IMG/VR virus record: IMGVR_UViG_3300017747_002940
Coordinates: 1-35,899 of that record
Origin: a virus
Taxonomy: Duplodnaviria > Caudoviricetes
DNA length: 35,899 bases
Reading direction: 5' to 3' (one strand)
Made by a program: the position numbers and the translations under genes. Below the pieces are notes generated by a model. It made no database searches and was not told the origin of the DNA. It was given only the letters and a program-made list of their open reading frames with translations. Shown here piece by piece: positions 1 to 34,189 of the stretch. Each line of letters opens with the position of its first letter. Positions within the stretch are counted from its first letter, which is position 1.

Positions 1-123
1 CAGTCTGCGAAGTTCCCGTTGGTCTTCTTGTCCCAAACCAGCACGCAACTCGTCGGCGGCAAGCTGTAGTAGTTGCCGCCGAAGATGATCTGATGCTGCG
101 CCTTTGCACGCATCAAGCCAATC
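1..123. repeat. Terminal direct repeat, copy 1 (circular assembly overlap)
   Basis: 1-123 is identical to 35777-35899, and a methyltransferase ORF reads in frame across the join. Confidence 0.95.
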
Positions 124-356
124 AGCCAATCGGCCGGCACGTCGGCATCCCATGTCGTTTGCGCGTAGATGCGTTTAGCCACACGGCGGTGCCCGTGGCC
201 CACCACAGTGCCGCTCGCTTTGTGCGCGGCAGCATCTGCGCCAATCCCGTAGGGCGGGTCCGTCAGCAGCAAGTCATGTGCAGGCAGCAGCGGCAGCACC
301 TCGCGGCAGTCCCCGTGCCACAGTTCCGCGTTCCCGATCACTACTTTCTCAGCCAT
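1..356 (-). CDS. DNA adenine-N6/cytosine-N4 methyltransferase, N-terminal part (continues at 35776-35422; about 236 aa in total)
   Basis: Manual translation from ATG 356 gives MAEKVVIGNAELWHGDCREVLPLLPAHDLLLTDPPYGIG (DPPY catalytic motif). It joins ORF 35422..35892, which carries LDPFMGSGTTG. Alternative in-frame ATG at 362. Confidence 0.9.
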   Translation of the reverse strand, partial: MAEKVVIGNAELWHGDCREVLPLLPAHDLLLTDPPYGIGADAAAHKASGTVVGHGHRRVAKRIYAQTTWDADVPADWLIGLMRAKAQHQIIFGGNYYSLPPTSCVLVWDKKTNGNFAD

Positions 357-358
357 CT

Positions 359-451
359 TCATCCTTTGTTGGTGCGCCACCAGTGAAACCTAACCCCTCG
401 GTCAACCGGAGAGCCCACGGCAAGTGTGGTGGCGTTATCAGGCTTTGTCAT
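359..451 (-). CDS. Leader peptide starting inside attC-like site (MTKPDNATTLAVGSPVDRGVRFHWWRTNKG)
   Basis: GGAG upstream of ATG 451 within the attC; its stop TGA overlaps the MTase ATG at 362 (ATGA). Confidence 0.5.
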   Translation of the reverse strand: MTKPDNATTLAVGSPVDRGVRFHWWRTNKG

Positions 452-483
452 GGGTGGTCTCCCGGTTACCTCGAACGTTAGGC
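388..483 (+). mobile_element. attC-like site 2 (96 bp)
   Basis: ACCTAAC-CCCTC-GGTCAACC...GGTTACC-TCGAAC-GTTAGGC. Confidence 0.9.
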
Positions 484-755
484 GGACGCAAATACCGGCG
501 CCCGTGGCCTCTCTGCTTTTCAGCCAAGAAAAACTCTGCGTCCTTGTTGACGCAGCCGCCGTCCGGGTCAAGAAACCACCAAGCATCTGTGAAGTCGTCA
601 GAAATCAGCGGCGCCCGCGTCTTCCAGTCGCACTTCACGGCCAGCACATAGCGGCGGCGGTTTGCCGTGGCATGGGCCACGATGAGAAACAGCCACCACG
701 AGTCTTCGGCCTCGTTTGTCGCTGCCCAGTAATCACCTGCTTTTATGTGACTCAT
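438..755 (-). CDS. Hypothetical cassette protein
   Basis: GAGG RBS upstream; C-terminus PNVRGNRETTHDKA is read from the neighbouring attC. Confidence 0.7.
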   Translation of the reverse strand: MSHIKAGDYWAATNEAEDSWWLFLIVAHATANRRRYVLAVKCDWKTRAPLISDDFTDAWWFLDPDGGCVNKDAEFFLAEKQRGHGRRYLRPPNVRGNRETTHDKA

Positions 756-781
756 GCGTTTCCTCGTTTGTCCACAGCGCC

Positions 782-839
782 GCCTAACCCATCGCTCAAC
801 TTGACCGCCTACGGCGGCAAGTTAGCTCGAACGTTAGGC
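782..839 (+). mobile_element. attC-like site 3 (58 bp)
   Basis: GCCTAAC-CCATC-GCTCAACT...AGTTAGC-TCGAAC-GTTAGGC. Confidence 0.92.
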
Positions 840-840
840 G

Positions 841-1074
841 TCAGCATTGAGCGCAATAAGCAAGACGGCCAGCGTGCGTCAGTTCGTAGCCAGATACAGT
901 GCAAGGCCACGGGCTATGCCCTACGCGCATTTCCGTTTTGCGAAGAAATCCTTCGTTTACCAATTTGTCAGCTAACTTCGATTTTGTCTGCATCAGATGC
1001 ACGCCTTTTGTAAGCGCGGCATTTACCTCTGCGTCAAACGCTTTTTCAAGCAATGCAAGTTCTCTTGAGTTCAT
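841..1074 (-). CDS. Hypothetical cassette protein (possible winged helix)
   Basis: MNSRELALLEKAF...YELTHAGR; AGGA RBS; fills the cassette. Confidence 0.7.
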   Translation of the reverse strand: MNSRELALLEKAFDAEVNAALTKGVHLMQTKSKLADKLVNEGFLRKTEMRVGHSPWPCTVSGYELTHAGRLAYCAQC

Positions 1075-1095
1075 TCCTATTTCCCTTCTGAGCCA

Positions 1096-1146
1096 GCCTA
1101 ACAGCCCGGTCAAGCCGACCTTCGGCGGCTTACCTAATCGTTGGGC
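1096..1146 (+). mobile_element. attC-like site 4 (51 bp)
   Basis: GCCTAAC-AGCCC-GGTCAAGC...GCTTACC-TAATC-GTTGGGC. Confidence 0.88.
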
Positions 1147-1388
1147 GTCTTTCCCGGCGCCCGCATCTTTTGTGTTGGCACGGCTTGCACAAACACGGCG
1201 AACAACTCAATTCCAGCCTCCCTCATCATCCTGTCGGTGGGTGCCCTTCGCCCGCTAGTAACTGTGGTCACAAACGTCGGCGTGATCCCCCAGTGCCGGG
1301 CGGCAGCAGCTTGCGTGCCGTGCACAGACTGAATGTGTGCAAGCACCATGACGCCTAGTTGCCGCTTCAGTTCGTCCGCAATCTTCAT
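1134..1388 (-). CDS. Small HTH (Cro/XRE-like) cassette protein
   Basis: GTQAAAARHWGITPTFVTTVTSGRRAP resembles a Cro/XRE HTH. Confidence 0.65.
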   Translation of the reverse strand: MKIADELKRQLGVMVLAHIQSVHGTQAAAARHWGITPTFVTTVTSGRRAPTDRMMREAGIELFAVFVQAVPTQKMRAPGKTPND

Positions 1389-1410
1389 TCTGTGCCTTCG
1401 TTCGCCAGCC

Positions 1411-1468
1411 GCCCAACCCCCGCATGCAGCGGAGCCCCTACGGCGCCCGCTGATGCTGGCCGTTAGGC
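1411..1468 (+). mobile_element. attC-like site 5 (58 bp)
   Basis: GCCCAAC-CCCCG-CATGCAGC...GCTGATG-CTGGCC-GTTAGGC. Confidence 0.88.
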
Positions 1469-1744
1469 CCCATACCCGGCGCGCTGACTATCAATCAGGT
1501 CTGCCACCATCTGTGCGTCATCGCCGCATGCTTTGAACAGCGCATCGGTTAGCACGCGAAGTTCTGCGTCTTGCGCCCTCACCAGTGCAGCCCAGCGTTT
1601 GCGCTTGCCGGCCCATGTCTGGTTTATCGTGTCGTCCAGTTCGCGCAGCACGGCATCGCGCGTGGGGCCTAACCCCTCGCTCAAGCCGAGCCCCAACAGC
1701 GGATCAGGCTGCTGTGGCGTGTCGGTAGCTTTGTCGTCATTCAT
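1463..1744 (-). CDS. Hypothetical cassette protein starting inside attC loop
   Basis: GGAG RBS and ATG 1744 lie within attC 6; stop TAA lies in the R' box at 1463. Confidence 0.7.
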   Translation of the reverse strand: MNDDKATDTPQQPDPLLGLGLSEGLGPTRDAVLRELDDTINQTWAGKRKRWAALVRAQDAELRVLTDALFKACGDDAQMVADLIDSQRAGYGA

Positions 1745-1789
1745 GCTTCTTCTCCCGCTGTTGTGTCCGGCTTAGCTCGAACGTTAGGC
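1667..1789 (+). mobile_element. attC-like site 6 (123 bp)
   Basis: GCCTAAC-CCCTC-GCTCAAGC...GCTTAGC-TCGAAC-GTTAGGC. Confidence 0.9.
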
Positions 1790-2119
1790 GTCAAAGTCCA
1801 GCGCCTTTTGCATGCGTGTCATGGATGCTTCCGGCTCGGGGTGCTTGTGTGCCGTACACAGCTCTTCAATGATGCCAATTGCCTCACGCAACGCCTGATC
1901 AAGCATGTCACGGTGCGCCTGAAGATCGGCCATCGTATGTTGCGCGTACTCCAGCGCCTTGGCCGGGTTGCACGCGCTGCAACCGTCTCCCAACAGGTAC
2001 TGCGTAAACGTGCATTTGCATCCGGTCGTGGCGTTGACGCCTAACCCCAAATTCGACTTGAGAGCCAACGGCGTGTTGGCGGGCGTAGCGTCGTGCGCTT
2101 CGGTTGGTTTCGTGGTCAT
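1784..2119 (-). CDS. Hypothetical cassette protein with Cys motif, starting inside attC loop
   Basis: CKCTFTQYLLGDGCSACNP; ATG 2119 in attC 7; stop in R' box at 1784. Confidence 0.7.
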   Translation of the reverse strand: MTTKPTEAHDATPANTPLALKSNLGLGVNATTGCKCTFTQYLLGDGCSACNPAKALEYAQHTMADLQAHRDMLDQALREAIGIIEELCTAHKHPEPEASMTRMQKALDFDA

Positions 2120-2152
2120 CGCGTTGTCTCAAAGTCAATTTGAACGTTATGC
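2039..2152 (+). mobile_element. attC-like site 7 (114 bp)
   Basis: GCCTAAC-CCCAA-ATTCGACT...AGTCAAT-TTGAAC-GTTATGC. Confidence 0.85.
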
Positions 2153-2156
2153 AGCA

Positions 2157-2480
2157 TCAAAACAGGTCCGCCGTCATCGCCGCAGCTTTGCGGGTGGCGT
2201 AGGCGGTGCGCTTGTGGTGCTCGGCGTCATAGGTCAGGTGGCACCGCTGGCACATCGCCTTGAGGTTGTGCGCGTCGCAGTTCTCAGGCGTGTGGTCCAG
2301 ATGCGCCACAGTCAGCACAACCCGCGATCCGGTCACCGGGTGCAGCGTGCCATTGGCTGCTCGGCAGTCCGGGTATGCCGGCGAACCTTCACACAGTTGG
2401 TGCGCTCGCTCGCGAATCGCGTCAGCAATGCGCTTCCAGTCCTTCGGGTAGCGCGCTTTGTTTTCCGGTCGTATCGGCAT
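2157..2480 (-). CDS. HNH-like endonuclease cassette protein
   Basis: LTVAHLDHTPENCDAHNLKAMCQRCH HNH motif; AAGGTG RBS. Confidence 0.8.
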   Translation of the reverse strand: MPIRPENKARYPKDWKRIADAIRERAHQLCEGSPAYPDCRAANGTLHPVTGSRVVLTVAHLDHTPENCDAHNLKAMCQRCHLTYDAEHHKRTAYATRKAAAMTADLF

Positions 2481-2502
2481 ATGTTCACCTTTCACCAATG
2501 CT

Positions 2503-2611
2503 GCATAACCATTCGCTCAACCGGACCCATTGCGGCGTGCCGCCATTTGGGCTAAACACATAGCCCAAATGCCGTCCCGCCGCAACGGTCCGGTTAGCTC
2601 AAACGTTAGGC
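2503..2611 (+). mobile_element. attC-like site 8 (109 bp, long internal stem)
   Basis: GCATAAC-CATTC-GCTCAACC...GGTTAGC-TCAAAC-GTTAGGC; inner ATTTGGGCTA/TAGCCCAAAT stem. Confidence 0.9.
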
Positions 2612-2613
2612 GC

Positions 2614-2856
2614 TCAGTAGTCCACGCCGATCACAAGCGGCCCCATGTGCAGGTACACCATGCACCAGCCCTGAGCGTAGGTCGTCACGAGCCGCCAGCG
2701 CTTCGGGCCGCGGCCGGGCCAGTCGCCCCAGTGCCAAGTCCAGTGACCGCGAGTTGCAGCAATCCAGCATTCGCGCAGCCATCCACCGCCGCGCCTAACC
2801 CCTCGCTCAACCTGACCCAAATGGGCAGGCGCCGCCGTCTTGTGTTCATGCTTCAT
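2614..2856 (-). CDS. Hypothetical Trp-rich cassette protein starting inside attC loop
   Basis: ATG 2856 in attC 9; N-terminal GQVERGVRR is the attC L''/R'' read antisense. Confidence 0.6.
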   Translation of the reverse strand: MKHEHKTAAPAHLGQVERGVRRGGGWLRECWIAATRGHWTWHWGDWPGRGPKRWRLVTTYAQGWCMVYLHMGPLVIGVDY

Positions 2857-2894
2857 CTGCTGCCCCTTTGGTCAGGTTAGCTCAAACGTTAGGC
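2793..2894 (+). mobile_element. attC-like site 9 (102 bp)
   Basis: GCCTAAC-CCCTC-GCTCAACC...GGTTAGC-TCAAAC-GTTAGGC. Confidence 0.9.
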
Positions 2895-3139
2895 CCTTCA
2901 ATCGGCGGGTACACAAACTCGCGCGTGCCGTTCTGGCGTAGCGGAGTGATGACCCCCTGCCGCTCAAAGTGCTCCAGAATCCGCGCCGCTTGGTTGTAGC
3001 CAATCCGCAGATTCCGCTGCAAGAAGGTAAGCGTTATCCGGCCTGGGTTCGCAAGCAACAGCGCCAGCGCGTCGTCTATGTGCTGTGCCGTCACCAGCGA
3101 CAGGCCGGGCCGGTTCTCTATCGGTGTCAGTTCAATCAT
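2882..3139 (-). CDS. Stand-alone FtsK gamma-domain protein (cassette)
   Basis: ITLTFLQRNLRIGYNQAARILEHFERQGVITP...NGTREF matches the FtsK gamma winged-helix signature (LQRxxRIGYNRAARLIE). Confidence 0.85.
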   Translation of the reverse strand: MIELTPIENRPGLSLVTAQHIDDALALLLANPGRITLTFLQRNLRIGYNQAARILEHFERQGVITPLRQNGTREFVYPPIEGPNV

Positions 3140-3161
3140 CTGCTCGCTCCGGTTACAACGG

Positions 3162-3227
3162 GCCTAACCCGTCGTCCGACCTGACAGCCCCGGCAAGCCG
3201 GGTCTGCAGGCCGACTCTGCGTTAGGG
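3162..3227 (+). mobile_element. attC-like site 10 (66 bp)
   Basis: GCCTAAC-CCGTC-GTCCGACC...GGCCGAC-TCTGC-GTTAGGG (one L-box mismatch). Confidence 0.8.
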
Positions 3228-3589
3228 CTGTAGTGGCGCACCACCGCCATCAATTCATCCTCTGTCGGCGGGCGTGGCGGTTGGTCGCTGAACAGCAACC
3301 ACGCGCCTTCAGTTCGGCCCCGGCTCTTGTACCAAGTCACCCATAACGCCAGCGCGCCGCCTGCGCCTTCAACGTTGTCAACTTGCACCGTCGCGTACTT
3401 CTGATCTTCGCAATATCGGTAATCCACGCCGCTCGGCATCGGGCTTTGGCCTTCGTACACCAGATCGCGCAGTGCGTTCACGCTGGCGCAGTTCCAGTTT
3501 TCGGCGTGGAACGCGCCCCGCTTAAAGGCGCACGTTGGGTCGTCGCCGGGCCAGGTCTTGCCACGCTTCTTGCACTCTTCACAGTTCAT
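3164..3589 (-). CDS. Hypothetical cassette protein
   Basis: GGAG RBS; MNCEECKKRGKTW...WYKSRGRTE; reads through the whole of attC 10. Confidence 0.75.
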   Translation of the reverse strand: MNCEECKKRGKTWPGDDPTCAFKRGAFHAENWNCASVNALRDLVYEGQSPMPSGVDYRYCEDQKYATVQVDNVEGAGGALALWVTWYKSRGRTEGAWLLFSDQPPRPPTEDELMAVVRHYSPNAESACRPGLPGLSGRTTG

Positions 3590-3608
3590 CGCGTTTCTCC
3601 AACAACAG

Positions 3609-3668
3609 CCCTAACTACTCGCTCAAGCCGAGCCCGCACGGCGGGCCGGCTTAGCTCGAACGTTAGGC
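3609..3668 (+). mobile_element. attC-like site 11 (60 bp, canonical)
   Basis: CCCTAAC-TACTC-GCTCAAGC-CGAGCCCGCACGGCGGGCCG-GCTTAGC-TCGAAC-GTTAGGC; extra C in L'' and extra A in the stem. Confidence 0.93.
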
Positions 3669-3955
3669 GCTGCAATCCTGTATCGCGCGTACCCGCATTT
3701 TTCAACAATTCCAGCATCCAGCAGCTTGCGCATCGCTTGGTCAACGGAGGTCACCGACACATCAAGCACAACAGCCACCTCGGCCGTCTTCATGGGTGCC
3801 CGGAACTCTGCCAAAGTCAGCAGAATCTTCGCCTGTGTTTTTGGCGGCTTTCCAAGCCTGCCGCCGTGCACGCCGCGCCTAACCTTTCGGTCAAGCAGAG
3901 CGCCAACGGCGGCCACGCCGTCACGCTCCGGGTCAGTCTGTAGCGCCGTTGTCAC
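3623..3955 (-). CDS. Winged-helix DNA-binding cassette protein starting inside attC loop
   Basis: ILLTLAEFRAPMKTAEVAVVLDVSVTSVDQAMRKLLDAGIVEK wHTH pattern; GGAGG RBS then GTG 3955 inside attC 12. Confidence 0.7.
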   Translation of the reverse strand: MTTALQTDPERDGVAAVGALLDRKVRRGVHGGRLGKPPKTQAKILLTLAEFRAPMKTAEVAVVLDVSVTSVDQAMRKLLDAGIVEKCGYARYRIAAPNVRAKPARRAGSA

Positions 3956-3976
3956 CTGCTTACCTCCACGTTAGGC
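3877..3976 (+). mobile_element. attC-like site 12 (100 bp)
   Basis: GCCTAAC-CTTTC-GGTCAAGC...GCTTACC-TCCAC-GTTAGGC. Confidence 0.88.
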
Positions 3977-3989
3977 ATCACAAAACCCG

Positions 3990-4286
3990 CTAAGCACGTT
4001 CCGCTGCAATGGCCGCGTCCAGCAGTTCGCGCAGCGGGCCAGGCCGGTATGCGGCATCCTTGTAGTGCTCGTCCCAGTCATCCCAGCCAGTGCCGTTCTC
4101 GTCCACGGCCACGCACCACGCGGCCAGCATGGCAATGGCAATGTCGCGCTCCTTCACCAGTTCCTCGCGCTCATCGGCGCGGCCTTCGGCGTAGGCTTCC
4201 TCCAGCGTCGGGGGCAGCACGTTCGCCAGTTCAGCGGCTTCTTCGGTGTTCAGGCCGTCAGGCGGCTGGAAATTGTCGTGGCTCAT
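3990..4286 (-). CDS. Hypothetical cassette protein
   Basis: AAGGA RBS; NGTGWDDWDEHYKDAAYRPGPLRELLD. Confidence 0.75.
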   Translation of the reverse strand: MSHDNFQPPDGLNTEEAAELANVLPPTLEEAYAEGRADEREELVKERDIAIAMLAAWCVAVDENGTGWDDWDEHYKDAAYRPGPLRELLDAAIAAERA

Positions 4287-4316
4287 ATCGTCCTTTCGTT
4301 GTTCGTCAACAGTGAT

Positions 4317-4374
4317 GCCTAACCCCGCAATTCAAGCCGACCGGCGTACCGGCGGCTTAATTGCAACGTAAGGC
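4317..4374 (+). mobile_element. attC-like site 13 (58 bp; R' is GTAAGGC instead of GTTAGGC)
   Basis: GCCTAAC-CCCGCA-ATTCAAGC...GCTTAAT-TGCAAC-GTAAGGC. Confidence 0.85.
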
Positions 4375-4620
4375 GCTTACCGGCACGCTAGCAAAGGCAT
4401 GCTCGCAGCAGCTACCCAGCTTCTTCACTGGGAAGCCGCCAATGCCGCAGCGGTTGGCTTGAACGCCGTACTTTTCAACGTCCCACACGCCGGGTTGCTT
4501 CTGAATCCAGGCTGGCAGCGTCATCGTCGCCACGCGGTGCGCGCAGTTTCCGCACACGCCAGCGATCAACCTTGGCGTGTACTGCTGCGCCTCAATGGCG
4601 GCTTTGTGTTTCTTGCTCAT
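4357..4620 (-). CDS. Hypothetical Cys-rich cassette protein
   Basis: CGNCAH...RCGIGGFPVKKLGSCCEH; GAGG RBS. Confidence 0.75.
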   Translation of the reverse strand: MSKKHKAAIEAQQYTPRLIAGVCGNCAHRVATMTLPAWIQKQPGVWDVEKYGVQANRCGIGGFPVKKLGSCCEHAFASVPVSALRCN

Positions 4621-4649
4621 GCTTGCTTCCCCTCGTTTATCAACCACGC

Positions 4650-4709
4650 GCCTAACCCCTCGCTCAAGCGGGACCGCCTGACGGCGGCCCCTTAGCTCGA
4701 ACGTTAGGC
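4650..4709 (+). mobile_element. attC-like site 14 (60 bp)
   Basis: GCCTAAC-CCCTC-GCTCAAGC...CCTTAGC-TCGAAC-GTTAGGC. Confidence 0.9.
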
Positions 4710-4710
4710 A

Positions 4711-5055
4711 TCACTGAATACGCACCGTGCGGCCGCCGTGGCGCAGAACTTCACCACGCTCGCCAATGGTCACCGGGTCGTCGCGGTGTACGCGCAGCGC
4801 CTGCTTGATCGCTGTCTCTGCGTTGCGCTGGTACTTGTCATACTCGGCTTGCAAGCGCTTCAACTTGTCGGCGGCCTCGCGCTCGATTTCGCCTATGCGG
4901 TCGCTCCGCGGCGGCGAGTAAAACGCCATGCCGTAGTGCTCATGCCCGCCTTCTGCGCCGCCAGCCAAGCAGTCAAGCTGCTCTGGCGTCAGCTTCAGGC
5001 CGCACTCGTCTGCGGCTTCGGCGATGCAATCTTTCCAATAGTCACTGTTGCTCAT
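4711..5055 (-). CDS. Hypothetical cassette protein
   Basis: MSNSDYWKDCIAEAADECG...HEHYGMAFYSPP; AGGA RBS. Confidence 0.75.
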   Translation of the reverse strand: MSNSDYWKDCIAEAADECGLKLTPEQLDCLAGGAEGGHEHYGMAFYSPPRSDRIGEIEREAADKLKRLQAEYDKYQRNAETAIKQALRVHRDDPVTIGERGEVLRHGGRTVRIQ

Positions 5056-5078
5056 ATTCGTCCTATCGTTGTAGTGAT

Positions 5079-5179
5079 GCCTAACCCCGCAATTCAAGCG
5101 GAGGCCCAACGGCATCAGCTTTGGTGGCTTCTTCGTACATGGTCACGCCGTTGGTCTCCGCTTAATTGCAACGTTAAGC
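5079..5179 (+). mobile_element. attC-like site 15 (101 bp; last of array)
   Basis: GCCTAAC-CCCGCA-ATTCAAGC...GCTTAAT-TGCAAC-GTTAAGC. Confidence 0.88.
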
Positions 5180-5554
5180 CCCAAATAAGCTGCCAGGCGT
5201 GCCAACAGGTGGCGGGGCTTCAGGCCTCGCGCTGCCTTCCCATGCTGTCGCCAGCAGTGCCAGTAATTCCTGGTCACTGTCCGCGCGCAGCAGCCGGTCG
5301 TGTGCGTTCACGCAGATGGATTGCAGGCGGGCAATCTCTGCGGGCGGGCTTGCTGCCAGGGCTGCGCGCTCTTGCCACAGCGCCCATGCCAGATCGACCG
5401 GATAGTCCTTGTAGTTCCCCGGCCATGCGCTGGTGTGGTCGTCGGGCCAGCGCTCGGTGTTGCGCTCGTAGGGCGGGCCACTGATAGTGCGCTCAAACGC
5501 AGTGCGCTCGGCATCCGTGGGCGCAGGCAGTGCGCTTGTTGTGTTGGTGGTCAT
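5174..5554 (-). CDS. Hypothetical early protein
   Basis: ATGA coupling with the upstream gene at 5551-5554; stop TAA in the last R' box. Confidence 0.7.
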   Translation of the reverse strand: MTTNTTSALPAPTDAERTAFERTISGPPYERNTERWPDDHTSAWPGNYKDYPVDLAWALWQERAALAASPPAEIARLQSICVNAHDRLLRADSDQELLALLATAWEGSARPEAPPPVGTPGSLFGA

Positions 5555-5979
5555 GCTCTTGTCCCCAATGGGAAATTGATCGGATTGTTTGCGTAGTGCC
5601 AAATGCTGGCAATTTGCACCGGCCGACGCCATGAATAATTGCGCGGTTCAACGGTTTGCGCTTTTGCTGGCTTTGGCAATTTTGGGCTTGTTGCCGTTTT
5701 TATGCGCTTGCGTTCTCGGGCTCGCTTACGCTTCCGCTCTTTCCGTTGCTCAGAGAAAACAGCATAGATACCGACAGGCCCGTAGCGGTTATTGGGGCCT
5801 TTGGTCATTTCGGAGAGCCCGCGTCCAGCAAGAACGCGCATGTATGCCTGGGCATGATGCACTGTCAGCCCAGTAGCTGCGCACACATCAATTAAGCGTA
5901 TGCCGGCCATACCTGAACCCAGCACCAGCGACAAAACTTGTTGCAGCTTTGCTTCGGGCATTGCGTATTGGCCTTTCAT
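5551..5979 (-). CDS. Hypothetical basic protein (possible wHTH)
   Basis: ATGA-coupled on both sides. Confidence 0.6.
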   Translation of the reverse strand: MKGQYAMPEAKLQQVLSLVLGSGMAGIRLIDVCAATGLTVHHAQAYMRVLAGRGLSEMTKGPNNRYGPVGIYAVFSEQRKERKRKRARERKRIKTATSPKLPKPAKAQTVEPRNYSWRRPVQIASIWHYANNPINFPLGTRA

Positions 5980-6473
5980 TTAATCGCCAGCCTCCAACCT
6001 TGCGCCAGCGTCACGCCCGGGATGTCTGCACCGCCTTGAATTGCGGTCTTCAGAAGCGCTTTGTCCGGTTCTGGCTCTGGCGCAGGCTTTTGACGCATGT
6101 ATTGCGCAGGAATTACGGCGCCGTCTGCAATCTGTACGGCTGGCGGCTTCTTTGCTATCTTTGCCGCCCATTCGTCGGTTGCAATCTCTGTTGTTCCCGT
6201 CGTCTGCATGTGTGTGAGTGCGTATTCCCGCAAAGCCTCTGCACGGCTGTCCAACGTTTTTGCGCGGTCGGCCATGCGCTTTGCTGCATCCTTGGCGCCA
6301 CCGGCCAAAATGTCAAGTTCCAAGCCATACGCGATGACTGCGCGCAACTTGTCGTGCAAGTCCCCCTGTAGGCTTTCTATGGTGTCGCGCACCACTTCGA
6401 CGGGCATGTCTACGTCTGCCAGTTCGGCAAGCTGGGTGCGGTATTCGGCTGCAATGTGAAAAAGGGCGGTCAT
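5976..6473 (-). CDS. Siphovirus Gp157-like protein
   Basis: Coiled coil then KIAKKPPAVQI...IPAQYM...PEPDKALLKTAIQGGADIPGVTL; sits next to the SSAP as is typical. Confidence 0.8.
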   Translation of the reverse strand: MTALFHIAAEYRTQLAELADVDMPVEVVRDTIESLQGDLHDKLRAVIAYGLELDILAGGAKDAAKRMADRAKTLDSRAEALREYALTHMQTTGTTEIATDEWAAKIAKKPPAVQIADGAVIPAQYMRQKPAPEPEPDKALLKTAIQGGADIPGVTLAQGWRLAIK

Positions 6474-7105
6474 GTTGTCACTTTCTGGACTTTCGCCATC
6501 TTGGTTGCTTGTGCTGCAAGAAATTGGCTTTCAGCATCGCCGTCGTTTTCAGCGCGGGCTTCTTCAATGGCTTCGTGTGTCAATCGCTTGCACTCGCCCA
6601 CGGTCGGCGAAAACTGGATTGCCTCCAGCCACGCGGCCAGCCATTGCGCACGATCCGGGCTGTCTGTGCGTGGCTCGTCGGCATGCAAATCTCCTTTGTG
6701 CCACAAGTCCAGCGCCGCACCGAAGCGCATGGCGGCATTGCGCAGAGCATCCCCAATGCGCTCCTTCATGGCGGCTGGGCCGGTCTTGCCTTCAGCGTCC
6801 CCGTAGCCCATGCGCGTAACCCCGCAGATGGTAAGGCGAATCCACAAGCCCCCATTGCTGTCCAGCTTGGGCAAGCCATCCCCGTCAAAGGCCACCGGCG
6901 CCCATGTCCAAGTGGGGTCGGTGTCCAGCAGTCGATCCGTTAAAGCTGCGTGGCCCACGTAATCAAGGTGCATGGCCGGCAGCCCGTGATAGCCACCGCA
7001 CTCTGGACAGTTGCCCTTAGGTGAGTCTTTTTTGTACGGCTTGGGTAGCTTGCTGATTTGGTGCGCAGGAAAGGGGGTGCGCAGAAGTTGCAATTTGTCG
7101 CTCAT
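6470..7105 (-). CDS. Rad52/Rad22 (Sak-like) single-strand annealing protein
   Basis: LDYVGHAALTDRL...KERIGDALRNAAMRFGAALDLW resembles the Rad52-family motif. Confidence 0.75.
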   Translation of the reverse strand: MSDKLQLLRTPFPAHQISKLPKPYKKDSPKGNCPECGGYHGLPAMHLDYVGHAALTDRLLDTDPTWTWAPVAFDGDGLPKLDSNGGLWIRLTICGVTRMGYGDAEGKTGPAAMKERIGDALRNAAMRFGAALDLWHKGDLHADEPRTDSPDRAQWLAAWLEAIQFSPTVGECKRLTHEAIEEARAENDGDAESQFLAAQATKMAKVQKVTT

Positions 7106-7112
7106 GTAAACC

Positions 7113-7226
7113 TCAAAACGGCGGGCGTTGGACGGTCGTTTTCCATGCTTGGAACAGCGCTTGGTGCATTGGCAAGTGACCGCGCAGCAGGCGATACATC
7201 AGCAAAAATGTACGGGCGCGGCTCAT
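7113..7226 (-). CDS. Small hypothetical protein
   Basis: ATGA-coupled; MSRARTFLLMYRLLRGHL. Confidence 0.45.
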   Translation of the reverse strand: MSRARTFLLMYRLLRGHLPMHQALFQAWKTTVQRPPF

Positions 7227-7378
7227 GTCGCGCTCACGCGGGTCAGAATCACCAGCCACGCCACCACTGCCACCAGCAGGACGGCAATCACGAAGTCTGC
7301 CATGTGCCCGTGACGATTGATAGCATCCAGGTGACCGTCGAATTCTTCGTCGGTCATGTCCCGAATGCGGCGGTTCAT
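7223..7378 (-). CDS. Small membrane protein (51 aa)
   Basis: Manual translation MNRRIRDMTDEEFDGHLDAINRHGHMADFVIAVLLVAVVAWLVILTRVSAT; AGGAG RBS. Confidence 0.6.
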   Translation of the reverse strand: MNRRIRDMTDEEFDGHLDAINRHGHMADFVIAVLLVAVVAWLVILTRVSAT

Positions 7379-7545
7379 TGCTTGCTCCTGACGATTTCAT
7401 CCAGCATGGCATGCAAACGCGCCCGACGTGCGGCTGCTTCACGCTCGCGCAAGGCTTGCAATGCCTGTTCGTTGGCGCGTGTTTGCATCGGCGTCAGGGC
7501 CGGGAAAGGCCAGGGGCTAGGCCCCCAGTGATGTGTGGCTTTCAT
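7375..7545 (-). CDS. Small hypothetical protein (56 aa)
   Basis: GGAGG RBS, ATGA coupling; MKATHHWGPSPWPFP. Confidence 0.55.
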   Translation of the reverse strand: MKATHHWGPSPWPFPALTPMQTRANEQALQALREREAAARRARLHAMLDEIVRSKQ

Positions 7546-7832
7546 GCTACCTCCGACTGGTAGCGCTCAACTTGAGCAGCAGCCAGGAAGTCGGCGCGCT
7601 CGATAGCCGCGTCCGCAACATCGTCGGCGTATTGCGCTTCAGACTGCCGGGTGACGGCCCAGTCGATGCAGTCGCACAGCGCAGGGCGCAGGATGTCGCG
7701 CGGGTCAACCCAGCCGTCGCGCCATTGCAATTCTGTGGCGTAGTGCGTGGGGATAGCATCTTCGTCGCTGTCATAGCGAACTGTGAACGCGACGCCATCA
7801 ACGGTGACTGTGGTTTCCAGGGGCTTGGGCAT
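7542..7832 (-). CDS. Hypothetical early protein
   Basis: First ORF after the leftward promoter. Confidence 0.65.
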   Translation of the reverse strand: MPKPLETTVTVDGVAFTVRYDSDEDAIPTHYATELQWRDGWVDPRDILRPALCDCIDWAVTRQSEAQYADDVADAAIERADFLAAAQVERYQSEVA

Positions 7833-7868
7833 GTTGCTGTCCGGTCGGTGTGTTGCTGCGATGTAGAG

Positions 7869-7897
7869 ACTGTGCCCGGATTCGGTGAGGCTGTCAA
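7869..7897 (-). promoter_or_regulatory. Leftward early promoter candidate
   Basis: TTGACA-17 bp-CACAGT on the minus strand. Confidence 0.55.
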
Positions 7898-7903
7898 CCG
7901 CTT

Positions 7904-7927
7904 TTGGTTAGGACAAACCCTAACCAA
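7904..7927. promoter_or_regulatory. Palindromic operator candidate
   Basis: TTGGTTAGG-ACAAAC-CCTAACCAA between the divergent -35 boxes. Confidence 0.55.
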
Positions 7928-7933
7928 TTCCGG

Positions 7934-7962
7934 TTGACGCCAAGCCCCACATCCGGTAATGT
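7934..7962 (+). promoter_or_regulatory. Rightward promoter candidate
   Basis: TTGACG-17 bp-TAATGT, 7 nt before ATG 7970. Confidence 0.55.
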
Positions 7963-7969
7963 CCAGCAC

Positions 7970-8176
7970 ATGAACATCAAACCACTTCCCACAATGGAAG
8001 CTGTGCGTCAAGCACTGGCGCCCCTGACGCTCAGGCAGCTAGACAAGTTGCAAGAGCTATCCGGCGTGCCGGCGACCACGGTTTACAAGATCAAGCAAGG
8101 GGAAACGGCAAACCCTGGCATTGACACGGTGCGCAAGTTTTTGCCGCACATCGAAGCCGCTAAAAAAGGAGCATGA
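7970..8176 (+). CDS. Cro-like HTH regulator
   Basis: LRQLDKLQELSGVPATTVYKIKQGETANPGIDTVRK XRE/Cro HTH. Confidence 0.8.
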   Translation: MNIKPLPTMEAVRQALAPLTLRQLDKLQELSGVPATTVYKIKQGETANPGIDTVRKFLPHIEAAKKGA

Positions 8177-8177
8177 C

Positions 8178-8315
8178 ATGCCAAGTTTTTTTGATGAGCC
8201 GCCGGAGCAACTGCAATCCACCATGCGCTGGGTTGCCGGATTTCTTCTTGGTTGCGCGTCTTGCGTTCTGCTGGTGTTGGCTGGCCTGCTGGTTCAGCTG
8301 GGGGTGTGCCGATGA
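8178..8315 (+). CDS. Small membrane protein
   Basis: AGGAG RBS; one hydrophobic helix. Confidence 0.55.
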   Translation: MPSFFDEPPEQLQSTMRWVAGFLLGCASCVLLVLAGLLVQLGVCR

Positions 8316-8485
8316 CCGGCCCGAAGCTCTACCCCCTCGGATCGCACATCAAAGGCGTCCGCAACAACAACGGCCACCGCACAAGCCAGCACCAGGCGAC
8401 AAAGGGGCGCAGCAACGCGGCAGCGGTGCCGCTTGCGCGGGTTGGGGCGGTGCTGCCGTGGGTGGCACCGACGGAAAGAGCATGA
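8312..8485 (+). CDS. Small hypothetical protein
   Basis: ATGA-coupled on both sides. Confidence 0.5.
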   Translation: MTGPKLYPLGSHIKGVRNNNGHRTSQHQATKGRSNAAAVPLARVGAVLPWVAPTERA

Positions 8486-8730
8486 ACGAGACGACTGACT
8501 TTGCCGAAATGTGGGTATCTGTGACCGCGCTGCGCAGTGCGATTGCCGGCGGCTATGTGAAGCCGGGAGGAGATGAGCGCACGACGCTTGTTCTGGCGGC
8601 AGAGATTGATAGGCTGCGCGAGGCCCTGCATGAGATTGCAGAAGCCGACATGACGACAAAGGGGTTTCAGATGATGGCCGCCGAAGCGCTGGATGCCCCT
8701 GCCCCGCCACACCCGGGGCAACAACCGTGA
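8482..8730 (+). CDS. Hypothetical protein
   Basis: ATGA-coupled; AAEIDRLREALHEIA coiled coil. Confidence 0.6.
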   Translation: MNETTDFAEMWVSVTALRSAIAGGYVKPGGDERTTLVLAAEIDRLREALHEIAEADMTTKGFQMMAAEALDAPAPPHPGQQP

Positions 8731-8736
8731 AACCCC

Positions 8737-8766
8737 TTGCGCATCTGTGCGGTAGCACGCTATGAT
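8737..8766 (+). promoter_or_regulatory. Promoter candidate upstream of replication gene
   Basis: TTGCGC-18 bp-TATGAT. Confidence 0.45.
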
Positions 8767-8771
8767 GCAAA

Positions 8772-8892
8772 CATCCATTGCTTGGCGGCGAAGGATGCAG
8801 TCATGAGGCCACTAGCTCATGCGTTCTGTGGGGGGGAAACCCCTCAACGCCGCCAAGCACAGAACGCAGCAGCTAGTGGCCTTTTTGTTTTT
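8772..8892 (+). ncRNA. Structured leader RNA / attenuator upstream of replication initiator
   Basis: Long stem 8806-8830 pairing with 8858-8882 followed by a T-run; 11-nt complement 8780-8790 / 8848-8858. Confidence 0.6.
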
Positions 8893-8900
8893 GGCGCCAT

Positions 8901-9758
8901 GTGAACTACTTTCCTTTCCATGTTGGCGATTACGCAGCCCATACGGCACACCTGGAGCCGATGGAAGACCTTGCTTATCGGCGCATGCTCGACCTGTACT
9001 ACTTGCGCGAGTGCTCGTTGCCTCATGAGCCGGCAGAAGTTGCCCGCCTGATTCGCATGCGCGCGAACGTGGCAGAGGTTGAGGCCGTGCTGCGCGAGTT
9101 TTTTACGCATACCGATGGCTGCGGTTGGAGCCATGCGCGCTGTGAAGCCGAAATTGCAAAGATGCAGGATAAACAAGCGAAGGCTAAAGCGTCCGCTCAC
9201 GCATCAGTGAATGCGCGTCAAGCGAACGCTCAACGAACGCTCAACGAACGCTCAACGCATGTTGAGCTACCAACACCAACACCAACACCAACACCAGAAG
9301 ATTCTGTAGCTAAAGCTACAGACGCCGCTGCCGCGTCGGCTCCGGTTGCTGACGCAAAGCCAAACAAGCCGCCGAAGTCGGCAGAGGACATGGCAAAGTC
9401 GGACCTCTGGCAAGCGGCTGTCTCCGTTTTGGAGGCTGGCGGCTGTCCGAAGTCGCAATGCAGGACGTTCATGGGGAAACTTGTGCAGGATTACACGCTG
9501 CTGACTGTGCAGCAGGCTGTTGCAGCCGCTGTCAGCGTACAGCCCGCTGATGCCAGGGAATACCTGAAAGCTACATGCCAGCGGCTGAAGGGGGAGCGAA
9601 AAGACCCCGTGACGGTTGCCAGCGACGCCGCGGAGAAGACAGCGGCATTTTTGGCGGCGCAATCGGCTCCCAAGCCTGGTATGACCGAGGAGCAGAGAGC
9701 AGCCCTGGCAGCGGCGCGCAGGGTAGGTGGCACAGCATCACTGAGGGCGGTAGGATGA
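8901..9758 (+). CDS. DUF1376/YdaU-family replication initiator
   Basis: MNYFPFHVGDYAAHTAHLEPMEDLAYRRMLDLYY signature; internal repeats and PTPTPT linker. Confidence 0.85.
   Translation: MNYFPFHVGDYAAHTAHLEPMEDLAYRRMLDLYYLRECSLPHEPAEVARLIRMRANVAEVEAVLREFFTHTDGCGWSHARCEAEIAKMQDKQAKAKASAHASVNARQANAQRTLNERSTHVELPTPTPTPTPEDSVAKATDAAAASAPVADAKPNKPPKSAEDMAKSDLWQAAVSVLEAGGCPKSQCRTFMGKLVQDYTLLTVQQAVAAAVSVQPADAREYLKATCQRLKGERKDPVTVASDAAEKTAAFLAAQSAPKPGMTEEQRAALAAARRVGGTASLRAVG
9223..9296 (+). repeat. Iteron-like repeats (putative origin)
   Basis: (CGAACGCTCAA)x3 at 9223-9255, inverted GTTGAGC at 9261-9267, (ACCAAC)x4 from 9269. Confidence 0.65.
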
Positions 9759-14824: not shown

Positions 14825-16981
14825 ATGGATGCCGTCACAGATGCAGCAAAACTCTACGCAGAAAGCCTTGATGCCCTGCGGGAGCAGCGCGCGCAGATTG
14901 AAGAAGACCTAGCGTTTTCCGATCCGTCAAACCCGAAGCAGTGGGATGACCAAGAAAGAGCAGAGCGAGAACGCGACCCGGGAGGGGCGCGGCCGTGCTT
15001 GGTCATGGATCAGATTGGGCAGTATGTGTCCAACGTGGCGGGCCAGATCGAGCAGCGGCCCCCGGCAGTCCACGCCATTCCTGTCGGCGCCGGTGCCGAC
15101 ATCCGCGTGGCCGAAAAGCTGGATGGCGTGTTCCGCCAGATCGAATATGCCAGCCGCGCCCAGCAGCATTACGCCCGCGCGCTGACATCCGCAGCCCGTG
15201 CGGGTGTCGGTTACCTAGTTCTGCGGCCCGAGGTCATCGACCGCGCGCTGAACTACAGCGAGCCGCGTATCAGCAGCGAGGGCGACCCGCTGCGGGTGGT
15301 GTTTGACCCGTGGTCCGTAGAGCTGGACGGCTCAGATGCAAACTTTGGTTTCCTGCTGTCTCCTTTGAGTCATTCAGAGTTTGAGCGGCAGTTTCCCGGC
15401 AAGGAGAAAGTATCGTTTGACGGCAAAGAAGCCCGTACCGTCACCGATACGCGCGAATCCATCGTAATCGCGGAACAGTGGTACTGCGAAGAAACCACCG
15501 TTGATATGGTGATTTTTGGCCGTCCTGAAACGCAGATGAGAGAATCGCTGACCAAGACTGATTTTGTTGCTTCGCTTGAAGCCGGAGAACAACTGCAGTT
15601 CCTTGGCGAATACAAGGACAAGCGCAAGCAAGTATGGTGGCGCAAGATCAGCGGCGCCGACATCCTGCAGCAGTCGCAAACCCCAGACGGCAAGAAAGCC
15701 CCCTATCCCGCTGACGGCATCGGCATTGTTCCGGTGTATGGGTACGTGGGCTGGTCTGACGGCCGGATGAAATACTGCGGCATTCCCCGGAGAGCAAGGG
15801 AACCGCAGCTGGCCTACAACTACCATCAGTCCGAGATTCGGGCCTACATGAGCCAAGCCCCCAAGGCTCCGTGGCTTGCCAGCGCACGGGCCGTGAAGGG
15901 CTACGAGAAGCTGTGGGATCGAGCAGGCGTTGAGAGCAGAGCTTTCCTGCCTTACAACGACATCGACGAAGAAGGCCCCATTGCTGCCCCGCAGCGCATG
16001 CAGAACACCGTGAGTCTGCAGAACCACATCGCAAACGCACAACAAGCGTTGCAGGACATCCAAGCCAGCATCGGGATGTACCAGGCGAACCTTGGTGCCC
16101 CAAGCAACGAAAGCAGCGGCGTAGCGATTGACGCGCGCAAATCTCAGGGCGAATCCAGCACGGCTCACTTTCAATCGCACTTAGCTGCAGGCATGGCTCA
16201 GATCGGCCGGCTGACCATGCAGATGTGCGCCAGACTACTGGACACCTCGCGCCAACAACGGATGCTTGGGATTGACAACACGCCAAGCATGGTGCAGATC
16301 AATCCCAACCAGCCGGAAGCCGTTCAAGAAACAGAAAACGGCCTGAGCATCAACCCATCACGCGGCACCTATGACGTGCGCGTTGTGGTCGGGGCAAGTT
16401 TCACCACGCAACGCCAGCAAGCACAAGCGGCGTTTGCCGAAATGATCCGCGCCAATCCCCAGATGGCCCCCGCACTGGCCCCGTTGTGGGCGCAAAGTTT
16501 GGATGTGCCACACGCTGACAAGCTGGCCCAGGTGCTGACCGCAGTTGCTCCGCCTGAAGTGCGCGCCATCCTGCAGCCGGACGAGAAAGAGACGACCGGC
16601 GCACTCAAGGCGCAAATGGAAGAAATGAAAGCAGCGTTAAAGGAAGCCATCCAACACGCTGAAGACGCGCAGCGGGAGTGCGACGAGAAAGACGCGCAGC
16701 TTCAGCAAAAAGAAGTCGAGTCCGACGCGCAGAAACGTGAGCTGGACATTAAGGCTTACAGCGCAGAGACAGACCGGCTCAAAGTCACGGGCGCCAACGA
16801 AGAACAACTCCGCGTCATCGTTGGCGACCTTATCAACAGCATGTTGACGCAGCCCGAGCCGTTGCCTGCTGAGATGCCGGAAGCCTATGAGCCGCCCGAG
16901 ATGGAAGAGGGCATGGAACAGCCAGAAATGAGCGAAATGCCAGAAACAATGCCCGAACAGGGCGCAGAGGTAATGCAATGA
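14825..16981 (+). CDS. P22-like portal protein
   Basis: 718 aa after TerL; RPCLVMDQI, NESSGVAIDARKSQG, YDVRVVVGASFTTQRQ; C-terminal coiled-coil barrel. Confidence 0.9.
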   Translation: MDAVTDAAKLYAESLDALREQRAQIEEDLAFSDPSNPKQWDDQERAERERDPGGARPCLVMDQIGQYVSNVAGQIEQRPPAVHAIPVGAGADIRVAEKLDGVFRQIEYASRAQQHYARALTSAARAGVGYLVLRPEVIDRALNYSEPRISSEGDPLRVVFDPWSVELDGSDANFGFLLSPLSHSEFERQFPGKEKVSFDGKEARTVTDTRESIVIAEQWYCEETTVDMVIFGRPETQMRESLTKTDFVASLEAGEQLQFLGEYKDKRKQVWWRKISGADILQQSQTPDGKKAPYPADGIGIVPVYGYVGWSDGRMKYCGIPRRAREPQLAYNYHQSEIRAYMSQAPKAPWLASARAVKGYEKLWDRAGVESRAFLPYNDIDEEGPIAAPQRMQNTVSLQNHIANAQQALQDIQASIGMYQANLGAPSNESSGVAIDARKSQGESSTAHFQSHLAAGMAQIGRLTMQMCARLLDTSRQQRMLGIDNTPSMVQINPNQPEAVQETENGLSINPSRGTYDVRVVVGASFTTQRQQAQAAFAEMIRANPQMAPALAPLWAQSLDVPHADKLAQVLTAVAPPEVRAILQPDEKETTGALKAQMEEMKAALKEAIQHAEDAQRECDEKDAQLQQKEVESDAQKRELDIKAYSAETDRLKVTGANEEQLRVIVGDLINSMLTQPEPLPAEMPEAYEPPEMEEGMEQPEMSEMPETMPEQGAEVMQ

Positions 16982-18459
16982 CTACCCTTGAAGCGGGCTC
17001 GGCGACATCGCTGCTGATTTCCAACAACGGATTCTTGGAAGTGGCAACGGGTGGTGGGTTTGGATCGGTGACGATCACGCCCACGGGTGGTGTGGCAGTT
17101 TCTGAAGCGTGGGGGCCTGCGCCGTTCCGCAAGCGTTGGACGGGCTACCCCGATGGCGCGGCGGTGTCTCTGACAAACACGACAAGCGCATCGTTTGACT
17201 ATGAAACGGACACAACGAATCTACCGCTAGCAGTCCAAGCCCTGGTGCAAGGGGGTGGGATGCGGTCCTTGGTGCAGTACCTGCCGAGCGCCACAGACAT
17301 CACGGTGGACGCCGCAGCCGCGACTGTCACGCCGGGGCCGGTGACGGCAGCCAACGTGGCCACCGAGGCGGCCACCTTGCGCGCGGCCCTGACCCGGAGC
17401 TACAACTTCCGCACGTCGAACGCGGAAACGGCCAAATGGCTCAATGTGCCTGGCGGGATCATCGATACCCAGTGGTACGGCACGGCTGCACAAAGCGAGG
17501 CGTACACCAGCGGCGGAACGGATCGCCTGTTCGAGAACGGGGTGTTCGAGTTGGTGACTGACGCCACCGACATCGCCATCATGTTCTATGGCCAGTCCGC
17601 CACGGTGGCACAGTTCCTTATCGATGGGGTCACTGCCCAGTCATCGGACTACACCACCACGGCGCCCCTGGCTGGCGACAACCGCGAAATGTGGTTCCGG
17701 TTCGTCTTCAGTGGCCGCAAGCCCCGCGTGATCGAGTTCCAGCAGCCGGCCGGCGTGCGGCTGTGGGAAGTGCGCTGCGGCCCAACGGCAACCATCTGGA
17801 AGCCAGGCCGGCGTCCGCGCATCAAGATCGTGGCCGACTCCTTCGGCGTGCGCCGCGCGGCCGTGGGCGAAACCGAGCCCACCAGCAGCGATGCCATTGC
17901 GCGAGTTGGCGCCGTCATTTCTCGGGTGCTGGGGTTCGCCGTGCCTGTGCAGTCGTGTGCAGGTGGTACGGGCTTCGCCAAGACGTTCACGAACACCGGC
18001 AATTACGCCTGGCGCATGACGCGAGAGGCGGCAGACCCGACCATCGACGTGGTGTGGCTCTGGGGCAGCGGCAACGATTTGGACCAGACCGAGGCGGCAG
18101 TTCGCCAGGGCGTCACCGACGCCATCGGCCTCGCCAAGTCCAAGCACCCAACAACCAGAATCATCGTCACGGGCATTCTGGGCGGCATGTGGACAGAGGA
18201 CGCGACCCACCAGGCGGTTACGTCATGGGTGCGCACGCAGGCGCTCTCGCTGGGCGCGACCTACATCCCCGTGGCCAGCTATGAAACAGGCGACCAGGGA
18301 GTGATTTTCGGCACCGGCCGCGTGGGTGCAACGACCGGCGACGGCAACGCGGATGTCTACCTGGGCGGCGGCGGTACGGATCGCCATTGGAACGTGGCCG
18401 GCATAAAGTATTACGCCCGGCGCATGGCGCAGACCGTGGCAGCGGCAATCGCGGCTTGA
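16978..18459 (+). CDS. SGNH/GDSL hydrolase-domain protein
   Basis: IVADSF (block I), GGTGF, GSGND (block III), DRHWN (DxH). Confidence 0.75.
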   Translation: MTTLEAGSATSLLISNNGFLEVATGGGFGSVTITPTGGVAVSEAWGPAPFRKRWTGYPDGAAVSLTNTTSASFDYETDTTNLPLAVQALVQGGGMRSLVQYLPSATDITVDAAAATVTPGPVTAANVATEAATLRAALTRSYNFRTSNAETAKWLNVPGGIIDTQWYGTAAQSEAYTSGGTDRLFENGVFELVTDATDIAIMFYGQSATVAQFLIDGVTAQSSDYTTTAPLAGDNREMWFRFVFSGRKPRVIEFQQPAGVRLWEVRCGPTATIWKPGRRPRIKIVADSFGVRRAAVGETEPTSSDAIARVGAVISRVLGFAVPVQSCAGGTGFAKTFTNTGNYAWRMTREAADPTIDVVWLWGSGNDLDQTEAAVRQGVTDAIGLAKSKHPTTRIIVTGILGGMWTEDATHQAVTSWVRTQALSLGATYIPVASYETGDQGVIFGTGRVGATTGDGNADVYLGGGGTDRHWNVAGIKYYARRMAQTVAAAIAA

Positions 18460-25611: not shown

Positions 25612-25805
25612 ACGAAGAAACCCCATTATGGCTGACGATGCGGCGCAACGCCTGGGATGTGTACTTTGCATCCGTGGTCAGTATGAGCCTTCATCCTGGA
25701 ACCACGCGCGACGCGGCGGTTCAGCGGCCGATCCCTGAGTGCGCTGCAATGGCAGATGCAATGCTTGCTGAGCGTGACCAGCGGGTCCAGGATGGTGTAT
25801 TGTGA
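25608..25805 (+). CDS. Small hypothetical protein
   Basis: ATGA/GTGA coupling. Confidence 0.6.
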
Positions 25806-34107: not shown

Positions 34108-34127
34108 ACGCATGACTGCCTAACAAC

Positions 34128-34187: not shown

Positions 34188-34189
34188 GC

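Follow-up and report, generated by a model that had tools for sequence, protein, structure and literature searches.

An integron-like array of fifteen reversed gene cassettes with an attI-like site in a freshwater P22-like phage

Background

Integrons are regarded as bacterial devices in which strand selectivity keeps the cassette genes facing the Pc promoter. In phages, clusters of attC sites lacking a nearby integron integrase gene (CALINs) are already published (Qi, Rajabal, Ghaly, Tetu and Gillings, 2023; PMC9892861), which the preliminary description of the DNA studied here had overlooked. According to the main text of that paper, 17 CALINs were found in 10,705 phage genomes and IntI1 recombined five of the six phage sites tested. 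In this work we have analyzed the whole of IMG/VR record IMGVR_UViG_3300017747_002940 (35,899 nucleotides, hereafter the window), the genome of a freshwater P22-like phage of 35.8 kb that carries an array of 15 attC sites.

The window array and the CALINs of Qi et al. are both attC clusters without intI that often hold orphan methyltransferases. The array differs in size, with 15 sites against the 2-4 predicted in each published CALIN (Table S1; three in TJE1), and in its attI-like site, the reversal of all its genes, the gene starts inside attC loops and the cassette movement at G|T. TJE1, the sole one of these CALINs re-analyzed here, has forward genes, and others could be reversed; no mention of reversed genes was seen in the text of the paper, figures and annotation file aside. 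No paper on reversed cassette arrays in phages was found in a search that included the accessible parts of PMC8946536, PMC8352920, PMC13323075, bioRxiv 2024.07.02.601686 and 10.64898/2026.09.14.751636 and covered few subscription papers.

With complete integrons (class 1 and betaproteobacterial chromosomal ones) the window shares the attC anatomy and strand asymmetry described in the accessible part of Nivina 2016 (PMC5027507), a simple attI site (L box, 5-bp spacer, GTT), the G|TT crossover and tandem cassette duplication. It is unlike them in lacking intI, in having its genes on the bottom strand and a promoter predicted at the far end of the array, so that the newest cassette would be promoter-distal, and in using attC as the 5' leader of a gene and not as its 3' trailer.

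attC sites of the array

The window ends in a 123-bp direct terminal repeat (complete virus record), because of which the genome forms a circle of 35,776 bp; on this circle the array runs, as the preliminary description had proposed, from 34600 over the contig junction to 5179. The 15 sites listed in that description, 51-123 bp long, are all present. The array comprises the following features (ORF, open reading frame).

34190-34582, minus strand: anchor gene, 130 aa, no known family; in loci L330 and L331 this slot holds intI
34583-34606, plus strand: attI-like site, degenerate L box at 34588-34594, 5-bp spacer, crossover G|TT at 34600
34601-35414, minus strand: cassette 1, C5 DNA methyltransferase gene 35337 to 34585 (PF00145) reading through attI; attC 35363-35420
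35415-35899, minus strand: cassette 2, first part, N6/N4 DNA methyltransferase gene 362 to 35422 (PF01555, phrog_67); continues at 124-477
1-477, minus strand: cassette 2, second part; attC 388-483
478-833, minus strand: cassette 3, ORF 755 to 438, 105 aa, no known family; attC 782-839
834-1140, minus strand: cassette 4, ORF 1074 to 841 (phrog_2239); attC 1096-1146
1141-1462, minus strand: cassette 5, ORF 1388 to 1134, 84 aa; attC 1411-1468
1463-1783, minus strand: cassette 6, ORF 1744 to 1463; attC 1667-1789 contains its start codon and ribosome site
1784-2146, minus strand: cassette 7, ORF 2119 to 1784 (weak phrog_12238), start inside attC 2039-2152
2147-2605, minus strand: cassette 8, HNH endonuclease gene 2480 to 2157 (phrog_1571); attC 2503-2611
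2606-2888, minus strand: cassette 9, ORF 2856 to 2614, start inside attC 2793-2894; alternative frame 2782 to 2606
2889-3221, minus strand: cassette 10, FtsK-gamma domain protein gene 3139 to 2882 (PF09397); attC 3162-3227
3222-3662, minus strand: cassette 11, ORF 3589 to 3164 reading through the whole of attC 3162-3227; own attC 3609-3668
3663-3970, minus strand: cassette 12, winged helix-turn-helix protein gene 3955 to 3623 (PF01022), start inside attC 3877-3976
3971-4368, minus strand: cassette 13, ORF 4286 to 3990; attC 4317-4374, R' GTAAGGC
4369-4703, minus strand: cassette 14, ORF 4620 to 4357; attC 4650-4709
4704-5173, minus strand: cassette 15, ORF 5055 to 4711 (phrog_21617); attC 5079-5179 with a leader of 19-21 codons
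5174-5554, minus strand: cap gene, 126 aa, stop codon within the last R', 5' side lacking an attC

The grammar proposed for R'' and R' holds in that 14/15 sites have GTT in R', and fails at site 4317, whose R' reads GTAAGGC. Each interval does contain one main gene, as had been described, but many of these genes start inside an attC site or read into one. The paired L arms were found as claimed, with structure kept over sequence: 7/7 pairs form in 13/15 sites and 6/7 in the other two, and among the 105 pairs of window sites the median longest exact match is 9 nt, with at least 20 exact bases shared in 4/105. A strict attC grammar finds 12/15 sites and a relaxed one 14/15, site 4317 escaping the latter because its R' begins with GTA; in 40 Markov-simulated genomes the mean numbers of matches were 0.125 (maximum 1) and 2.35, respectively.

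The training set of a covariance model consisted of 23 short attC sites from bacterial genomes, each closing a forward cassette; sites matching our attC search pattern were excluded. This model ranks the 15 window sites 1-15, all on the plus strand and at 23-62 bits, with at most 18.2 bits on the minus strand and 14.9 bits for the best match outside the array. It also recovers all three TJE1 sites, on the gene strand, and our own top-strand call for TJE1_attC2 matches the oligonucleotides that Qi et al. give in the text of PMC9892861, so that the polarity call is checked on a site recombined by IntI1.

The polarity of the sites is canonical. The top-strand extra base in L'' is C at 14/15 window sites, 182/204 phage sites and 67/78 bacterial sites, and the bottom strand has the more stable fold at 13/15, 166/204 and 67/78 of them; its advantage is 2.1 kcal/mol for phage and 2.7 kcal/mol for bacterial sites, the mean published in the accessible part of Nivina 2016 (PMC5027507) being 2.12 kcal/mol. 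Among the matches listed, each window attC is as close or closer to a phage site than to a bacterial one, and closer in 14/15 cases. All attC tests run were passed, and judged by these sequence properties all 15 are confirmed as real attC sites.

The joint of cassettes 13 and 14 (4368-4370) reads G|TA, which may lock that junction. Overlapping the C5 methyltransferase gene, cassette 1 contains a second long open frame (34683-35333, minus strand, 216 aa); the ribosome site region is common to both.

Orientation of the cassette genes

The attC sites have the plus strand as their top strand and the cargo lies on the minus strand. Eight of the 15 cassette genes have family matches, all on the minus strand; the five long plus-strand ORFs across the array gave no family match, and codon scoring placed all 13 scorable cassettes on the bottom strand (13/13). 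The reversed orientation, which the preliminary description had overlooked, is confirmed by these sequence signals in all window cassettes. With its 15 sites and no intI nearby the array answers to the definition of a CALIN, and nowhere in the window is a top-strand gene followed by its attC, the layout of the canonical cassette. A top-strand promoter near attI, if there is any, would be antisense to all cargo. PADLOC matched the cargo with methyltransferase and HNH models only.

One attC pattern retrieved at least 122 loci in bacterial genomes, 80 of them with flanks, and 46 in viral contigs. Clustered at 70% identity, with L265 left out, the phage clusters (window, anchor loci and viral loci) numbered 195 reversed, 5 forward and 2 unclear, and the bacterial clusters (flanks of 80 of the at least 122 loci) 11 reversed, 76 forward and 2 unclear or mixed. 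The five forward calls in phage arrays were not accepted as captured host cassettes, being weak ORFs with scores of 5-9.

The attC sites also provide gene starts. In phage attC sites of at least 80 bp the loop carries a Shine-Dalgarno-like 4-mer with ATG on the bottom strand in 68/120 cases and on the top strand in 3, and in 63/120 a loop ATG opens the reading frame used by the cargo ORF; the corresponding counts for long bacterial sites are 1 (bottom) and 2 (top) of 29. Four of the seven long sites of the window start their own gene (at 1744, 2119, 2856 and 3955), two bear leader peptides (451 and 5140) and one is without a clear start. In attC 388-483 of cassette 2 the leader has 30 codons from the ATG at 451, and its stop overlaps the methyltransferase start. 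Translation would pass through the attC hairpins; in class 1 integrons translation governs array expression, according to the accessible part of PMC11511950.

attI-like site and anchor gene

Position 34600, overlooked in this respect by the preliminary description, falls in an attI-like site, which would make the array more than a CALIN. In 34/36 anchor loci, the window included, the anchor start codon is separated by 17 nt from a GTT (33 by an in-frame test and L112 by eye; L122 possesses the site but no start codon at this spacing, and L127 is cut off). The 33 in-frame loci represent 27 distinct sequences, which have in common an L-box-like core and a 5-bp spacer and differ after GTT, as expected of the attI of a complete integron with differing first cassettes. 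The first attC was reachable in 21 loci, three of them near-copies, and in 19 its R'' is the exact complement of the attI heptamer. An intI gene beside attI, the other mark of a complete integron, is absent from the window and present in genomes G454 and G459. A second attI type, with an L box near TGTCTAA, a 5-bp spacer and GTT and without the anchor-type consensus, stands at the end of other reversed arrays (L268, L269, L270, L278, L287, L296 and L300).

The anchor gene has 157 homologs among 291 candidates, and its profile matched in only 3 of the loci found by the attC pattern. The protein gave no family, fold or recombinase profile match and no similarity to IntI, and its AlphaFold model (pLDDT 79, pTM 0.44) no Foldseek match at E <= 0.001 in PDB or BFVD. 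In cultured phages neither an anchor homolog nor an attC match above chance was found, the matches being HNH and other cargo genes.

The segment 34118-34195, located between the anchor gene and the lysis genes, holds a lone GCCTAAC and small palindromes (TATAGCTATGTATAGC, TAAGCTAGC-type) with a weak 7-bit model match; it is perhaps a decayed site or a terminator region.

Cassette movement among relatives

Contigs of four sequencing runs were compared with window positions 1-6000. Two contigs of one run, possibly the source run, cover this segment with zero differences; in a second comparison 33800-34700 was almost without cover, so that it allows no statement on attI. Two near-identical contigs, one each from runs X4 and X5, come from two other studies. 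The X4 contig (1,394 bp, 3 differences) skips, at a 4364/4700 joint, 335 bp that are exactly cassette 14, with 5 shared bases round G|T, and cassette 14 is present in another X4 contig and in an X2 contig. In the X5 contig (1,717 bp, 1 difference) cassette 12 is followed by cassette 5 at a 3968/1139 joint, and the two sides have 4 bases in common at G|T. Both joints retain the left attC body, as predicted for a bottom-strand crossover in R'. Loss and reordering exactly at the cut point, which the preliminary description had proposed to look for in related phages, are seen in these joints, and the same cassettes occur beside different neighbours elsewhere among phages. Where the window has G|TA, the X4 form lacking cassette 14 reads G|TT at the joint.

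L289 contains cassette 1 with 97.8% identity over 736 bp from the crossover on, placed behind an attC and not behind attI. Cassettes 2, 8 and 15 begin at the crossover behind other attC sites in other phages; the start of cassette 2 recurs after other sites in L301, L112 and L268, cassette 8 has an 84.8% identical copy with other neighbours in L257, and in L264, L275 and L278 one and the same cassette has a different neighbour on its left each time. Cassette ends are complementary over 9.1 nt on average, against 5.2 nt when shuffled (n=220), and over 7-13 nt in 14/15 window cassettes. Units with complementary ends appear to move from G|TT to G|TT, except where attC bodies have been swapped.

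Some genes occur both inside and outside cassettes. Of 19 relatives, 18 carry the cassette 15 gene as a plain phage gene without attC, and one, L082, has it as a cassette whose ends are the same; the HNH gene of cassette 8 has a homolog without attC in L323, and the cap gene homolog of L330 is a full cassette. Judged from these sequences, conversion of plain phage genes into cassettes fits the cassette 15, HNH and cap genes, in a direction that they do not establish. The question of cassette origin is testable, because the phrog_21617, HNH and cap families exist in both forms.

Two further candidates were set aside. L299, a 4.8-kb circular cassette-only contig, matches the stretch between the two copies of a gene body in L280 and was not counted as a cassette circle, as it may be an assembly loop from the 380-bp L280 duplicate; the presumed different first cassettes of L110 and L111 proved to be a 75-bp difference at a microhomology. 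L265 gave no megablast match to the window.

Integrase sources and bacterial counterparts

The absence of an integrase, claimed in the preliminary description, was upheld by six-frame searches of the whole genome, in which PF00589, TIGR02249 and PF00239 (tyrosine recombinase, integron integrase and resolvase) had no match. None of 18 viral records (16 with anchor) had an IntI over the cut-off, and six had an ordinary integrase. IntI is present in 18/25 bacterial genomes picked from attC matches and is encoded by 2/40 viral records with the window attC family, L330 (G454) and L331 (G459). Both have reversed cassettes, attI, intI on the cargo strand about 40-45 nt away, and then a phage integrase. 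Like the window they combine this attC family with reversed cargo and an attI at the distal end of the early genes; in the place of their intI and phage integrase the window phage has the anchor gene and no integrase. Their IntIs share 57% identity and form a group (97/95) in a 20-sequence tree that includes 18 bacterial IntIs, a pair being too few to call a clade.

Sequence evidence suggests a Burkholderiales host for the phage. The bacterial chromosomal integron L322 (G026:C68, 17992-19957; IntI 459 bits, adjoining genes for malate synthase G and LysR) has at attI two tandem, reversed 369-bp cassettes (368/369 identical), followed by mostly forward ones. The reversed gene starts inside its attC, which is 78/100 identical to window site 3877 (cassette 12), and a weak homolog of this gene sits in a reversed phage array. 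G217 has anchor, attI and reversed cassettes plus an IntI on another contig, the sole such genome of 401 in the family of G022.

The tandem phage-type cassettes of L322 would be antisense to the host promoter. L138, a Roseateles bin contig with a reversed array, and L330 share the same start of a 95-aa cassette protein. The Lampropedia arrays L146 and L208 have several near-identical 245-bp cassettes with no clear ORF.

Discussion

From these comparisons we consider it likely that the array is a phage integron platform without its own integrase, whose cassettes are excised, inserted and reordered by IntI acting in trans, from the host or from another phage; use of the host IntI would be one such route. 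IntI would bind the folded bottom strand as in bacteria, and for this reason each unit (TTRRRY-gene-attC-G) should land the same way round. The array is likely read from the leftward early promoter of the phage; with a promoter at this far end, new cassettes would enter promoter-distally. The origin may lie in an intI-attI platform that entered the early operon with intI along phage transcription, as in two related phages, a geometry in which only bottom-strand genes would be expressed. The window lineage would then have lost intI, or replaced it with the anchor gene, and kept attI; attC would have become the 5' leader of each gene, and ribosome sites and start codons would have arisen in long loops. 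In addition, attC bodies are exchanged between genes by another route of lower precision.

Several observations weigh against this explanation. The bacterial comparison set was retrieved with a pattern derived from the window, and clusters cannot be counted as independent samples. A single assembled contig underlies each of the X4 and X5 joints, at depths of 6.2 and 8.9, in which loss and gain cannot be told apart, and L322 and G217 are metagenome bins. The window attI has a degenerate L box without the A/C of most relatives at some positions, and site 4317 departs from G|TT with its GTA, so some window sites may be weak. Gene bodies 99% identical have different attC sites of their own (L265 versus L264, L275 and L278; L262 versus L264), L280 contains a duplicated gene body (1-378 and 4773-5150) with two different sites, and the L289 copy of cassette 1 is without its attC. 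Such swapped or missing attC bodies are not explained by bottom-strand IntI recombination alone; the swaps could reflect either annealing in conserved arms or top-strand recombination in R'', a reaction described in the accessible part of PMC5027507.

The same swaps, between near-identical genes and with breaks in the conserved 5' arm, bear on the best surviving alternative, that the attC-derived repeats now serve mainly as homology linkers for the phage annealing recombinase, IntI being minor. In lambdoid phage mosaics, boundary or linker sequences, which are short and conserved, lie between modules and exchange is concentrated there. The phage does encode an annealing protein, NinB and NinG, a few window pairs share at least 20 exact bases (4/105), and a cassette gained or lost between L264 and L278 is flanked by identical attC sites. 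The window sites are unlike mosaic boundaries, though, in conserving structure, bulge included, while sequence drifts to the median match of 9 nt; at the close-relative joints the overlap is only 4-5 bases, with G|T at its centre. Cassette 1 follows attI in the window and an attC in L289, the two having no sequence in common to its left, and attI, which is not repeated, is conserved. We hold this alternative to be unlikely.

Less likely still is a self-sufficient system in which the anchor, or some other unannotated protein of the phage, acts as the recombinase or as a helper that recombination requires. The anchor occupies the intI slot with its start codon 17 nt off the cut point in 34/36 loci, and 0/16 anchor-bearing viral records have an IntI over the cut-off; yet this 130-aa protein matches no recombinase family, fold or profile, and its profile occurs in only 3 attC-pattern loci, the attI type of other phages having no anchor. 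It is very improbable that the array is an inert piece of a host integron picked up once by transduction, as in the captures in Vibrio prophages mentioned in the text of Qi 2023 (PMC9892861), for although chromosomal integrons of bacteria contain this attC family too, bacterial cassettes point forward and those of the window are reversed, the cargo has phage homologs without attC, the window sites are closer to phage than to bacterial ones in 14/15 cases among the matches listed, and cassettes move in present-day relatives, the X4/X5 reordering contradicting inertness.

On the favoured explanation, an integron platform served by IntI in trans, attC sites of unchanged polarity carry opposite-facing genes in phages and are shuffled in natural populations, which offers a site-specific explanation for the mosaicism of phage early regions and links phage gene flux to host IntI activity. 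The key claims are assayable in E. coli by standard attC x attI tests. More tentatively, Burkholderiales phages might run an integron system of their own, with a reversed cassette pool, phage attI sites and a phage IntI lineage, in which genes become cassettes through a new attC leader and reversed polarity silences incoming host cassettes, anti-phage ones included; we regard this as possible and rather doubtful. If true, it would be a natural setting for studying how cassettes are made.

Phage genome and further observations

Scanning of 70 ORFs gave matches to a P22-like portal and coat, terminase, ejection proteins, endolysin and spanins, as well as to NinB, NinG, a single-strand annealing protein and a Gam-like protein. 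Rfam and ARAGORN scans of the window had no match. Two features upstream of the array complete its surroundings.

5976-7105, minus strand: Gam-like/Gp157 gene and single-strand annealing protein gene (phrog_253, phrog_3290), in the same leftward gene run as the array; a possible rival exchange route
7860-8176, no strand: point from which leftward and rightward genes diverge; cro-like gene at 7970-8176

That the array goes together with the annealing protein gene was tried and rejected, since at least two attC-like calls were present in only 3/80 annealing-protein loci. To judge from the gene layout, the divergence point is the likely origin of the leftward transcript; a consensus promoter scan did not call it, and the promoter and terminator scan of 1-9000 gave counts at chance level. 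The RNA runs contained small shares only, and array expression was not seen there. No repressor gene was seen at the divergence point (7860-8176); with its lambda-like divergence, cro-like gene and no integrase, the phage is possibly a lytic derivative of a temperate phage. A GDSL-lipase-like gene (16978-18459, Pfam match below its cut-off) directly follows the portal gene, and an Asp/Asn beta-hydroxylase-like gene (25802-26338, Pfam match) lies among the tail genes.

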